Part shown: positions 3,734 to 26,319 of the stretch, in pieces | Layout of the letters: every line of letters starts with the position of its first letter | Position numbering within the stretch: position 1 is the stretch's first letter | Translations under genes and position numbers: made by a program | Source: a virus | Taxonomy: Duplodnaviria; Caudoviricetes | Reading direction: 5' to 3' (one strand) | Length of the DNA stretch: 26,319 nucleotides | Virus record (IMG/VR): IMGVR_UViG_3300016722_000155 | Coordinates: 1 to 26,319 of that record | The notes under the pieces: generated by a model | The model's input: only the letters and a program-made list of their open reading frames with translations | What the model was told of the DNA's origin: nothing | Database searches by the model: none

Positions 3734-4051
3734 ATGGATGTGCCATTATCAGAACGCATTACAGTAACTATTGCCGATGCTTGTAAACTGACAAGCATTG
3801 GTCGGAAACAGCTTTGTGATTGGATAAAGGATGATATAAATTTTCCTAGTTTTAAGGTTGGCAGCAAAACCATGATAGCGGTAGAACCATTACGTCAATA
3901 TATCGCAAATAAGGCAAAAATACGTATTGGTGAACCGATTCACAATGAAAGAATTGCCGCTATTTATGCTAGGCGAGAGGCTAGAGTGGTTCAATCTAAA
4001 GAAAGGATGGCTGATGTTAATGGTAAAAGAACAGCGCTCGAAATGCGGTAG
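3734..4051 (+). CDS. xis: Excisionase-like winged-helix DNA-binding protein
   Basis: ITVTIADACKLTSIGRKQLCDWIK...FPSFKVGSKTMI resembles the HTH_17/excisionase pattern; GGAGG SD before ATG 3734. Confidence 0.75.
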   Translation: MDVPLSERITVTIADACKLTSIGRKQLCDWIKDDINFPSFKVGSKTMIAVEPLRQYIANKAKIRIGEPIHNERIAAIYARREARVVQSKERMADVNGKRTALEMR

Positions 4052-4313
4052 AGAATTAATAATACTTGCGTTTATAGCAGTGGTGCTTATGGGGTGTATG
4101 CAGCAACCTAAAACTATGTATACCAATAAGGAAGTAGTAACAGTTCATTTGGGAGATACAGTGTGGGGGATTGCTAGCAGGTATTGTGGAGACGTATATA
4201 TGTTGGAATACCTAGAAGAGCTGAAGTCATTGCCGGAAAACAAAAAAGTTTTAAAGCCAAATAGGCCACTGCAGCCGGGAGATAAGCTGACTGTATCAAT
4301 ATATATAAAATAG
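4014..4313 (+). CDS. LysM-domain lipoprotein (YneA-like architecture)
   Basis: Hydrophobic LIILAFIAVVLMG-C with lipobox-like LMGC; LysM VTVHLGDTVWGIASRY...LQPGDKL; AAAGGA SD before ATG 4014 (ATG 4020 is an alternative). Confidence 0.8.
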   Translation: MLMVKEQRSKCGRELIILAFIAVVLMGCMQQPKTMYTNKEVVTVHLGDTVWGIASRYCGDVYMLEYLEELKSLPENKKVLKPNRPLQPGDKLTVSIYIK

Positions 4314-4452: not shown

Positions 4453-5166
4453 TTAACATTGTTTATTAGATTCCGTTACTCCATAAGAAAATCCTAATAT
4501 CTGATCTGTAAACACGTTCAGGATACTAAAAGTGAGCTTCTGATTGGGATTAGAAAATGGCATAATGACAGCATTTTTCAACGGAATATAACAAGTATTA
4601 TTCACGACAAAAGTGTTTTTATTTTCATCGTTTTTAAGAGACTTGTAAAGACCTTTTTTAAAATTTGTATTTATAATTAAACCTACGTCTAAAGTTTCAT
4701 CATCGCTGTCTTGAATTATAACTTCACCAATAATTTCAGCAGATGATGTTAAAATCGCTATTTTTGTGTCTTTATCAAGGCTGAATTTATCACTTTTTTT
4801 TAAAATATCTATTACACCGGCAATAGCAAAAATATTTTCTGCCTTCATATCTATTCGATTTTTGATATAACTTGGAGCATCGTCTAAACTTGGAGCATCG
4901 TCTAAACTTGGAGCATCGTCTAAACTTGGAGCATTATCTAAACTTGGAGCATCGTCTAAACTTGGAGCATCATCTAAACTTGGAGCATCGTCTAAACTTG
5001 GAGCATCATCTAAACTTGGAGCATCGTCTAAACTTGGAGCATCGTCTAAACTTGGAGCATCATCTAAACTTGGAGCATCATCTAAACTTGGAGCATCGTC
5101 TAAACTTGGAGCATCGTCTAAACTTGGAGCATTATCTAAACTTGGTATATCGTTTACTTTATTCAA
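4453..5166 (-). CDS. Accessory protein: 15 x PSLD[D/N]A acidic repeat fused to a GvpU-like / Sm-like beta domain
   Basis: Open frame through the repeat; C-terminal IAILTSSAEIIGEVI...YIPLKNAVI...DQILGFSYG recalls GvpU-like proteins (tentative); TTG 5166 follows a GAGGTG SD (ORF track uses GTG 5175). Confidence 0.7.
   Translation of the reverse strand: MNKVNDIPSLDNAPSLDDAPSLDDAPSLDDAPSLDDAPSLDDAPSLDDAPSLDDAPSLDDAPSLDDAPSLDDAPSLDNAPSLDDAPSLDDAPSLDDAPSYIKNRIDMKAENIFAIAGVIDILKKSDKFSLDKDTKIAILTSSAEIIGEVIIQDSDDETLDVGLIINTNFKKGLYKSLKNDENKNTFVVNNTCYIPLKNAVIMPFSNPNQKLTFSILNVFTDQILGFSYGVTESNKQC
4869..5145. repeat. 18-bp tandem repeat, 15 full copies plus partial ends
   Basis: TTGGAGCATCGTCTAAAC x9, TTGGAGCATCATCTAAAC x4, TTGGAGCATTATCTAAAC x2; no spacers. 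Confidence 0.98.
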
Positions 5167-5239
5167 AATAATCACCTCATTCTATTTTGATGTTCTTGCA
5201 GTAATAGTGGGTTTAGACAAAATGTAAAACATTTTAACT

Positions 5240-24257: not shown

Positions 24258-24629
24258 CTAATGGGTAATCAAGCCAGAAATATTAGCGGCAATAACCCCA
24301 TCGGCAATCATTTTAATTACGGACAATGATGCAGAACCACCAATACTAACTAAACGTTCTTTAACTTTATCCCAAACAGAATCGTTCCTAACACTGTCAA
24401 GATAATCACACCCTGCGGAGGTTAAGCGGTTTATAATACAGTCACCGTTGTTATTTACAACATTTAACATACGGCAATCAATAAACTTGGCATCATTAAG
24501 TAGTTGTACATGAAAAAGTATAGTAGGACGATCGGCACGATTATCTGTTAAGTCAGTTAAATGTACAGCCTTATTAGAGGTTTCGATTTTCAGCATAATT
24601 GTTCTGAGCATATCTAAATCTCTTTTCAT
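24258..24629 (-). CDS. DUF2513-like moron protein
   Basis: MKRDLDMLRTIMLKIE...FHVQLLNDAKFI...RLTSAGCDYLDSVRNDSVWDKVK; GAGGAG SD. Confidence 0.85.
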   Translation of the reverse strand: MKRDLDMLRTIMLKIETSNKAVHLTDLTDNRADRPTILFHVQLLNDAKFIDCRMLNVVNNNGDCIINRLTSAGCDYLDSVRNDSVWDKVKERLVSIGGSASLSVIKMIADGVIAANISGLITH

Positions 24630-24748: not shown

Positions 24749-25195
24749 ATGGTTAAGGAGGTGATCCAAATATCTGAGGTATGTAATTTTTTAAGCAATC
24801 TTTATACAAAAGCGGAAATTAAAATAATTGCAGTTTCCGGAATTATTGGCGGCATAATAGCTTCTGCTGTTGGTGGGTTTGATAAACAGTTAACAGCGTT
24901 GTTTGTATTAATGATTTTGGATTATGCAACAGGCATGTATGCAGCATGGCATGAACATACCATTTTTTCAAAACGTGGGTACCAGGGAGTTATGAAGAAG
25001 CTGTCTATCTTGGTTGCTGTTTCCTTTGGTGTTTTGGTGGATATGGTCTTAAAGACAGATTTTTGCCGTTATACCGTTATAGCAGGGTTTGGTGTCATGG
25101 AAGCTATATCTATTATAGAAAATGCTGACCGTGGTGGTTATGGCCACGTTATACCACCTGTAATCAGGAAGCATCTAAAAGAATTGAAGGGATAG
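24749..25195 (+). CDS. Holin (phage holin 4-1 / toxin-secretion family)
   Basis: GGFD...LFVLMILDYATG...SKRGYQGVMKK...EAISIIENA...IPPVI; start ambiguous (see findings). Confidence 0.9.
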   Translation: MVKEVIQISEVCNFLSNLYTKAEIKIIAVSGIIGGIIASAVGGFDKQLTALFVLMILDYATGMYAAWHEHTIFSKRGYQGVMKKLSILVAVSFGVLVDMVLKTDFCRYTVIAGFGVMEAISIIENADRGGYGHVIPPVIRKHLKELKG

Positions 25196-25196
25196 C

Positions 25197-25475
25197 ATGA
25201 ACGAAAAGTTGTTAGAGATGTTAAAAGAAAATGGTGAATGGTCATTTACACGCTGGATAGCCTTTATTGGCTATTCGGCGTTTTTGCTAGGCTCGTTTTA
25301 TCTGCTTTATAAAGGTCAGAAATGGGATAACTATGACACGTTTGCTAATTTGACTGGTGGCGGTGGAGCTATTACTCAGTTGGTAAACAAGTTTATAAAT
25401 GGAAAATATAACACCAATTTAGGAGAACCGGGAAAACCGGTACAAAAAGATGAAGAAAAAGGAGCTGACAATTAA
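25197..25475 (+). CDS. Small membrane protein in the lysis module (second holin / antiholin candidate)
   Basis: WSFTRWIAFIGYSAFLLGSFYLLY TM helix plus a Gly-rich second segment; position. Confidence 0.6.
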   Translation: MNEKLLEMLKENGEWSFTRWIAFIGYSAFLLGSFYLLYKGQKWDNYDTFANLTGGGGAITQLVNKFINGKYNTNLGEPGKPVQKDEEKGADN

Positions 25476-25900
25476 TGGCAAAATTGCATTATGATGGTAA
25501 AAAGTTGAATTTACATTATTCGCGTGATAATGACGAGGAATATGATTTTGACTGCCACAATCAATTTGAAAGCGGTGAAAATGAAGAGGGAGAGCCACAT
25601 GAAAGTTTGCCTAATGGGATTTACCCTCATGCTTGGGCGGAGGACGCTGAAACAGCAATGAACAATGGCAAGAGTTACGGTTGCGGGTATATCCATACTG
25701 GTGATGCTCGCGGGCGGGATATTCATGGCGGCGGCAGCTCACTATCTGACCCTTATGCTGATTATCAAGGTTGGTTATGCACTTATGGGTGCTTGCGCAT
25801 GCAGAATGCCGATGTTGTTAAACTATCGGAAATGATGATCGAGGATGGCAATGATGTTGAGTTAACGGTAGAAAATAACGAAGACGCAGAAGAAATTTAA
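25475..25900 (+). CDS. L,D-transpeptidase (YkuD)-fold protein in the endolysin position
   Basis: LPNGIY, GRDIHGGG and TYGCLRMQNADV: His and Cys catalytic motif of the YkuD family; no signal peptide; AAGGAG SD. Confidence 0.8.
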   Translation: MAKLHYDGKKLNLHYSRDNDEEYDFDCHNQFESGENEEGEPHESLPNGIYPHAWAEDAETAMNNGKSYGCGYIHTGDARGRDIHGGGSSLSDPYADYQGWLCTYGCLRMQNADVVKLSEMMIEDGNDVELTVENNEDAEEI

Positions 25901-25924
25901 AATACTAAGAAAGGAGTGAATAAG

Positions 25925-26319
25925 GTGTGGAAGACAAAAAAACTATGTTCTTGTATATTGGTATTGTCATTCTTGCTATCACCTGTAGCTACTTGTTATT
26001 CAGCATCTACCACGATGACCATGACAGTGGAACAGGCCAGCAGATTGAAAGAGATATTTCAGGAGCTGAACAACATCAACAGTCAGCTATCAACCGACTT
26101 GACGGCATCACAACAGACCTTGGAACAACAGCAAGCGAAGTTGGACGAATATCAGATTTGGTTGGAAGCAGTGCAGCTGAAATTGGTAGCACTGCAGAAA
26201 GAATCGGAACTGACCAAGCAAGAGTTGCTGCAAGTGCAACACTTATTGCAGAAGGTCAAGGAATCCTTCGAGACATACAAAAAAGCAACCAACAAGAAAA
26301 TAAGCCAACTAAAGATTGA
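25925..26319 (+). CDS. Overlapping ORF B (partial, runs off the window): signal peptide + leucine-zipper coiled coil, spanin candidate
   Basis: GTG 25925, 8 nt after AAGGAG; at least 131 codons with no stop: MWKTKKLCSCILVLSFLLSPVATCYSASTT...LSTDLTASQQTLEQQQAKLDEYQIWLEAVQLKLVA...; absent from the ORF track. Confidence 0.8.
   Translation, partial: MWKTKKLCSCILVLSFLLSPVATCYSASTTMTMTVEQASRLKEIFQELNNINSQLSTDLTASQQTLEQQQAKLDEYQIWLEAVQLKLVALQKESELTKQELLQVQHLLQKVKESFETYKKATNKKISQLKI
25927..26319 (+). CDS. Overlapping ORF A: N-terminal TM + coiled coil, i-spanin-like candidate
   Basis: GTG 25927, 10 nt after the same SD; TM MFLYIGIVILAITCSYLLFSIY; heptad L/V/I pattern; follows the putative endolysin. 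Confidence 0.7.
   Translation: MEDKKTMFLYIGIVILAITCSYLLFSIYHDDHDSGTGQQIERDISGAEQHQQSAINRLDGITTDLGTTASEVGRISDLVGSSAAEIGSTAERIGTDQARVAASATLIAEGQGILRDIQKSNQQENKPTKD

Follow-up and report, generated by a model that had tools for sequence, protein, structure and literature searches.

An overlapping gene pair in phages of diderm Firmicutes encodes a candidate lipoprotein-free spanin of two predicted coiled-coil proteins

Introduction

The closest described systems are the two-component spanins, which are found after a holin and an endolysin gene and whose two genes can be embedded (lambda Rz/Rz1), overlapped (P2 LysB/LysC) or separated (T4). Their i-spanin has an N-terminal transmembrane (TM) helix followed by a periplasmic coiled coil, their o-spanin is a short, Pro-rich outer-membrane lipoprotein with a lipobox Cys, and the two contact each other C-terminus to C-terminus. 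According to the available text of PMC6139136, described spanins depend on an outer-membrane lipoprotein, and about 70% of the embedded o-spanins start at 0.4–0.5 of the i-spanin. The same text presents T1 gp11, a u-spanin, as a protein acting alone, with an outer-membrane lipoprotein signal and a β-rich periplasmic part.

For Negativicutes, it is reported in the accessible part of PMC5007114 that LolA and LolB were not found, and in that of PMC10665443 that no outer-membrane lipoproteins were identified in Veillonella parvula, whose periplasm measures 24.2 nm. Without Lol, ordinary o-spanins should be unavailable in Negativicutes. In a survey of 485 Negativicutes prophages, the lysis module is annotated as a holin and a lysin only, and the term “spanin” is absent from the available text (10.1101/606087). 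Likewise, we found no description of spanins of diderm Firmicutes in titles and abstract openings, among which subscription journals are sparsely covered. These reports raise the question of how Negativicutes phages cross the outer membrane.

Here we describe two overlapping genes, A and B, whose position downstream of holin and endolysin is that of the two-component spanins. A follows the i-spanin plan, and B is likewise in the +1 frame and extends past A, with a separated form existing as well. They differ from these systems in the site of the B start, right where A begins, and in the nature of B, which equals A in length, is helical instead of short and Pro-rich, carries a hydrophobic tail at its C-terminus and is not a lipoprotein. 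A differs too, as it is one unbroken helix almost without periplasmic Cys, and the predicted contact between A and B is an antiparallel coiled coil over the full length. B resembles T1 gp11 in having an export signal at its N-terminus and a hydrophobic segment at its C-terminus, but it has no lipobox, is all helix and is found together with A.

Results

Two co-initiating reading frames at the end of a temperate phage contig

The window analysed here is a whole contig of 26,319 nt (26.3 kb) from a temperate tailed phage, in which integrase, repressor, terminase, portal, capsid and tail genes, recognised by their order and look, are located upstream of the lysis genes. The A/B pair lies at the very end of the contig, where we annotated the following features:

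24749..25195, + strand: holin, Phage_holin_4_1 (PF05105, E 2.2e-27; phrog_199)
25197..25475, + strand: hydrophobic protein of 92 aa, encoded between the holin and endolysin genes, without family match
25475..25900, + strand: putative endolysin of 141 aa with a weak, sub-threshold YkuD-like match
25911..25916, + strand: Shine-Dalgarno (SD) sequence AAGGAG, 8 nt from the B start and 10 nt from the A start
25925..26319, + strand: ORF B in the +1 frame, of whose 150 codons the first 131 are in the window; predicted signal peptide and coiled coil
25925..26005, + strand: B signal peptide, predicted signal-peptidase-I type, without conserved lipobox
25927..26319, + strand: ORF A, 130 aa, stop TGA at 26317-26319; i-spanin-like by prediction, with an N-terminal TM helix and one long periplasmic helix
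25948..26010, + strand: A TM helix, about residues 8-28 (hydropathy; AF2 helix 4-30), predicted N-in/C-out from charge asymmetry
26032..26298, + strand: coiled-coil helix of A, spanning residues 36-124 and some 13 nm long (AF2 model, mean pLDDT 89.6)
26098..26269, + strand: nine NTTG-type sites at 21-nt spacing, supplying the heptad core residue in both frames
past the window end, + strand: B hydrophobic C-terminal tail, residues ~134-146, taken from the near-identical locus L005

An earlier sequence-only reading had claimed a single SD followed by two GTG starts, at 25925 for B and 25927 for A, two open frames and nine sites spaced by 21 nt that supply a heptad residue to both proteins. All of these coordinates turned out to be exact, and so did the 130 aa of A, the run of B up to the window end and both residue series, seven sites being NTTG and the two variants being ATCG at 26203 and CTTC at 26266. 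The same reading had described the DNA as AT-rich, which we had to correct, since the region has 42% GC compared to 39% in the window and is therefore not unusually AT-rich. It had also suggested extending the contig to find the end of B. For that, we used locus L005 (L005:2999-3451), which is 99% identical and gives a B protein of 150 aa whose stop is located 58 nt after the A stop, so that B reaches about 20 codons past the end of A and closes with its hydrophobic tail. A further GTG in the B frame, at 25916, overlaps the SD itself.

The third frame contains many stops over the A/B region. When codons were shuffled according to local usage with the A protein held, B was open in 0 of 20,000 shuffles (mean of 8.1 stops), and in the converse shuffles with the B protein held, A was open in 0 of 20,000 (mean of 10.3 stops). 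Also, none of 1,394 windows of the same length from seven neighbouring genes had an open +1 or +2 frame. Self-identity at lag 21 is 0.44, versus about 0.2–0.35 at other lags up to 41, and reaches 0.40 at lag 42. The motif spaced by 21 nt reflects the coding of two proteins, with the A codon NTT giving Leu, Ile or Val and the B codon TTG giving Leu. This codon pairing explains the motif, and we rejected a DNA repeat element as its origin.

Elsewhere in the window, a six-residue unit (18-nt repeat) recurs about 16 times in tandem in the first half of the ORF at 4453-5175, and the strand opposite the repeat is open as well. A lipoprotein-like ORF (4014-4313) that is presumably LysM-like, judging by its look, is found in the early region, well away from the lysis genes.

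The pair mostly follows peptidoglycan hydrolases in lysis cassettes

By scanning the nearest upstream ORF in a non-redundant set of 123 loci, 7 of which had no such ORF to scan, we found a peptidoglycan hydrolase in 75 out of 116 cases. These enzymes belong to six Pfam families, that is, by hand count, Amidase_3 (25), Amidase_2 (16), GH25 (15), Peptidase M15 (9), VgrG3-like C-terminal (8) and glucosaminidase (2); the remaining 41 upstream ORFs, including that of the window, had no hydrolase match. With these hydrolases and the PF05105 holin upstream, the pair does sit in the spanin slot of a lysis cassette, as had been supposed from the window. The 141-aa ORF is possibly an endolysin of an unrecognised type, and in close relatives of the window its slot is occupied by an Amidase_2 or M15-like peptidase gene instead. 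The 92-aa hydrophobic ORF (25197-25475), a possible second holin or regulator, is conserved in loci L014, L016 and L017 and matched no Pfam or PHROG family. At eight loci (L077, L087, L099, L103, L112, L125, L128 and L163), a stand-alone VgrG3-like C-terminal domain (PF21277) occupies the endolysin slot. Between the tail and holin genes of the window, a DUF2513 gene on the opposite strand (24258-24629, -), absent from that place in L014, is a probable moron.

Other settings were also encountered. In two loci from the class of genome G355 (L058 and L060), the pair comes after a Cro/C1-type HTH gene and not after an endolysin, and in L060 it is followed by a 197-aa ORF without Pfam match, beside a repetitive stretch. 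In genome G438 (L225:6233-7096, the same locus as L062), A and B are separate and adjacent and come after genes for an AHH nuclease domain, Imm11, an AAA ATPase and an eCIS core; no endolysin was seen adjoining them. This gene setting suggests that the pair could have been reused for the release of a contractile injection system.

Both frames are conserved and under selection

By using a profile built from 23 close relatives of A, we collected 147 representatives of 50%-identity clusters, and 133 of the 146 new ones are 100–160 aa long. A protein collection at 90% identity held 24 relatives for A and only 3 for B, which suggests that gene callers mostly record one of the two frames. At the genome level, A-family matches were found in 109 of 401 genomes from the class of genome G229 and in 8 of 58 from the class of G355. 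The former is an LpxC-positive class of Bacillota, which we infer to be the Negativicutes.

The sequence-only reading had asked whether relatives keep both frames and suppress synonymous variation, and both turned out to be the case. First, among 150 of the 151 matches from the class of G229, a +1 ORF of at least 120 codons was present at 146 loci, with B identity going down to about 15%, while truncation or a frameshift accounts for the other four; the +2 frame was open at 0 of the 150 loci (mean of 12 stops). Second, we compared third codon positions in 41 independent pairs, 13 of them with controls. Those of A showed 0.098 changes per site versus 0.30 in upstream genes, and those of B 0.162 versus 0.284 in the B-only tail. 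For the family-wide analyses, 174 loci were reduced to 157 by dropping 9 without a usable start call or with a broken B and 8 on length or completeness filters, and these gave the 123 loci that are non-redundant at 85% identity, of which 119 entered the covariation test below. In 121 of these 123 pairs, core lengths differ by multiples of 7 residues. Together, the substitution patterns and the 21-nt indels show that both frames are under selection, each for its own protein. In L062/L225, intact A and B genes stand in tandem without overlap, and the +1 frame of A has 10 stops there.

It had also been proposed that the choice of start codon sets the stoichiometry of the two proteins, and here the outcome was mixed. 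The predicted starts are offset by -2 (20 loci), +4 (54 loci) or +7 nt (8 loci) in 82 out of 143 loci, which is consistent with one shared SD. On the other side, not even close relatives keep GTGTG itself, two separate SD sites are present at many loci, and at one locus the genes are fully separated.

In L014 (L014:2999-3040), both frames agree fully with the window over their first ~13 codons, and both proteins then switch to a subfamily with 29% identity (L016, L017), a sign of recombination within the common 5' end that preserves both frames. Protein P0142 is a frameshift chimera with the N-terminal part of A and a B-type C-terminal tail, and L226:2316-2770 (minus-strand count) is a decayed copy in which the start of B is joined to the end of A; these chimeras may be sequencing errors or remnants.

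A is predicted to be an i-spanin-like protein and B an exported helix without lipobox

In A, an N-terminal TM helix had been noted in the window, and such a helix is predicted in 121 of the 123 family members. The AF2 model combines this helix with one unbroken helix of 89 residues, i.e. by prediction the N-terminal TM and periplasmic coiled coil of an i-spanin, and periplasmic Cys residues are nearly absent in the family (0.5%). Spanin profiles gave no match for the window proteins. Rz-like PHROG families matched at most 11 of 132 A members each, weakly (best E 2.9e-7), and this is a generic similarity between proteins with a TM helix and a coiled coil. PHROG 18860 (42 of 132 A members) and PHROG 6631 (18 of 123 B members), two families without assigned function, gave weak matches as well. 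A fold search with the A model against viral structures returned 0 matches at E <= 0.001, and the matches in PDB, Pfam and NCBIfam were rejected as homology because they reflect generic coiled coil only. When six queries were compared by tblastn to 50,697 GenBank phage records, five had no match and one had a partial match to an unannotated record (E 0.06), and the nearest ESM Atlas clusters (scores of 0.92–0.95) are unnamed and serve as a lead only. The pair is real, widespread and apparently undescribed.

For B, a basic n-region was found in 121 of 123 members, and a small-X-small cleavage pattern also in 121 of 123, the latter by a permissive pattern test and not by SignalP. The suggestion that no canonical lipobox is present extends to the family, as a canonical lipobox was seen in only 6 of 123 B proteins and a relaxed pattern in 6 of 123, and no Cys follows the h-region in 36 of 123. 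Thus, B has neither the lipobox Cys of an outer-membrane o-spanin nor the N-terminal lipoylation signal of a u-spanin. We also considered B as a non-canonical lipoprotein and rejected it, given that the Cys is not conserved and, where present, is coupled to W-Y-L-F codons of A. Another lipoprotein-like ORF, within the pair or up to 700 nt downstream, was found at 1 of 123 loci, and none was found in the lysis region of the window.

The AF2 model of B consists of the signal helix and one helix of 115 residues (mean pLDDT 90.3), and this all-helix model does not have the β-strand periplasmic domain of u-spanins. The C-terminal tail is hydrophobic in 108 of 123 members, with a median of 15 uncharged residues, but only five of the 123 reach the threshold of a 19-residue TM window. 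In addition, positive charge is greater before the tail than after it in 101 of 123 members. By the positive-inside rule, the opposite is expected for a type I anchor of the inner membrane, and the asymmetry observed in B is therefore the reverse of such an anchor. It is on its length and charge only that we would place the B tail in the outer membrane.

Covariation supports an antiparallel coiled coil between A and B

To look for contacts between the two proteins, A was mapped onto the B alignment via the shared DNA, and mutual information was read away from shared codons, where it peaked on one antidiagonal. With end-anchored coordinates (119 pairs, ~84 effective sequences), this antiparallel register ranked 1 out of 52 both for A-N/B-C and for B-N/A-C with two alphabets and was the best one in 40 of 40 subsamples, and it was retained in a set of 78 sequences with less than 50% identity. 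The mutual information of A-A and of B-B peaked at the same register, which we attribute to codon coupling.

Side-chain volumes were more specific to the A-B pair. Core volumes anticorrelate between A and B (-0.30 and -0.14) versus +0.01 for A-A and +0.09 for B-B, and the A-B correlation is near zero in other registers of the same heptad class. At A61/B94, for example, Ala in A occurs with Leu in B in 45 cases and Ile in A with Ser in B in 22, and buried Asn-Gln and Asn-Asn pairs are found among further examples. Among 53 sister pairs, volume changes were opposite in 20 of 28 cases (p 0.018) and in 21 of 32 (p 0.055). The register also accounts for the variant site at 26203, where Ser94 of B would face Ile61 of A. 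A charge-complementarity scan of the registers was uninformative. The covariation between chains supports an antiparallel coiled coil that would pack residue i of A on residue 155-i of B, in line with the heterodimer that had been suggested from the window. Two other arrangements were rejected. A parallel in-register strut of ~15 nm (14.9 nm) would be too short, and the covariation at offset 0 is due to shared codons; an intramolecular hairpin finds no A-A or B-B volume complementarity.

With a helix rise of 0.15 nm per residue, the median helix lengths are 13.8 nm for A and 15.2 nm for B, which would be enough for the two proteins to meet across a periplasm of ~24 nm. The antiparallel register would bring the membrane-proximal end of A beside the start of the B tail, with both anchors at one end.

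The hosts tested are diderm Firmicutes in which LolA was not detected

G229 and G355, the genomes at the centre of their classes, are both LpxC-positive. In a phylum-wide sample with 9–10 candidates scored per genome, they were the only ones in which the A and B profiles were both strong, so that the pair was found in 2 of 85 LpxC-positive genomes and in 0 of 316 LpxC-negative ones, the other 83 LpxC-positive genomes having no match. Hits of at most 48 bits in this sample were mostly longer coiled-coil proteins, and at 38 inspected loci with such hits no full-length B partner was found. This restriction to diderms may reflect only host ancestry and the reach of the profiles.

A diderm Firmicute had been suspected as host from the window sequence, in agreement with the LpxC-positive class of the tested carriers and with the presence of Omp85 in 5 out of 5 of them; LolA or Lnt above cut-off was found in 0 of 5 carriers tested. 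We also sought a Lol-positive diderm Firmicute for contrast, and LolA was found in 0 of 15. The missing Lol is the likely reason for a lipoprotein-free pair in these hosts. One family member is named from Pelosinus. Another locus, L021 of genome G001, is labelled Acholeplasmataceae, but the genome has LpxC and Omp85 and carries the pair twice, and the label is thus probably wrong.

Discussion

We consider it fairly probable that A and B constitute a two-component spanin free of lipoprotein, suited to diderm Firmicutes without a Lol pathway. According to this model, A would be anchored N-in/C-out in the inner membrane, and B would be exported and its signal cleaved, with its hydrophobic tail of 12–16 residues inserting into the outer membrane as a substitute for the lipid anchor. 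The distal tips, that is the C-terminus of A and the N-terminus of B, would be the first to touch across the ~24 nm periplasm. Once the endolysin has cleared the wall, zippering toward the anchors would fuse the membranes with a SNARE-like geometry, and the final state, with the A TM helix and the B tail at the same end of the rod, would resemble a post-fusion one. Signal cleavage, tail insertion, fusion and the role in lysis are proposed here from sequence. The gene overlap keeps the two helices matched in length, because one 21-nt indel shifts both by one heptad. SNARE helices are parallel with C-terminal anchors, whereas the combination of an N- and a C-terminal anchor requires an antiparallel bundle, and we refer to SNAREs as a mechanistic analogue only. 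What would be common to both is that helices in two membranes zipper from distal tips to anchors, as described for SNARE complexes in the available text of PMC7830690.

Were only one of the frames real, the other would be open through the codon bias of the first, and the excess of A over B relatives in the protein collection could be read in that way. We regard this as extremely improbable given the shuffles in either direction, the suppressed third-position change in both frames, the two intact proteins where the genes are separated (L062/L225), and the signal, heptads and 20-codon tail past A that B retains. With two real proteins, the position in the lysis cassette alone leaves their step undefined, and the periplasmic coiled-coil pair could be a non-fusing accessory. 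It could set the timing of the holin, deliver the endolysin or switch it on, or act on some other load-bearing polymer of the envelope. A precedent is the corynephage protein LysZ, presented in the accessible part of PMC13123898 as the product of a lysis gene beyond holin and endolysin without an outer-layer target. Such a role seems unlikely to us, as the six hydrolase families preceding the pair speak against an enzyme-specific partner, the pair was not found in 316 LpxC-negative genomes, whose phages also need holins and endolysins, and two long complementary helices with anchors at opposite ends are better suited to a membrane bridge.

A slightly better case, unlikely as well, can be made for the same antiparallel rod with both anchors first in the inner membrane, either because the B tail stops transfer or because the signal stays uncleaved. 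The tip of the ~14-nm rod would then act on the outer membrane or a tether (e.g. OmpM) after wall loss, or the tail would be passed late to the outer membrane. The antiparallel register fits two inner-membrane anchors equally well, and a cis complex would place both at one end without any conformational change. It is also textbook knowledge that the transfer of a Sec substrate is usually halted by a hydrophobic stretch at its C-terminus, and the C-terminal TM of T1 gp11 lies in the inner membrane according to the available text of PMC6139136. Against this stand the B tail itself, which is short, weak by a 19-residue window and reversed in its charge asymmetry, and the length of the rod, since 14–15 nm cannot span the 24.2 nm given in the accessible part of PMC10665443.

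Going beyond the spanin model, we tentatively suggest, with rather less confidence, that the pair might represent a third class of phage membrane fusogens, a SNARE-like antiparallel heterodimer that is made from a single dual-coded gene and held in the outer membrane by a short C-terminal helix instead of a lipoprotein. Negativicutes phages might then rely on it as their main exit device, with a further use next to a contractile-injection locus, and it might reveal a Lol-independent anchoring route for helical outer-membrane proteins of diderm Firmicutes.

The candidate spanin gives a concrete and testable answer to the question of how phages exit Negativicutes, and it occurs in 109 of the 401 genomes sampled in the class. 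The pair further stands out as an unusually clean example of almost complete gene overlap held at low identity, for which coupled heptad indels provide a mechanical reason, and it offers a residue-level register for what would be a minimal bacterial fusogen.
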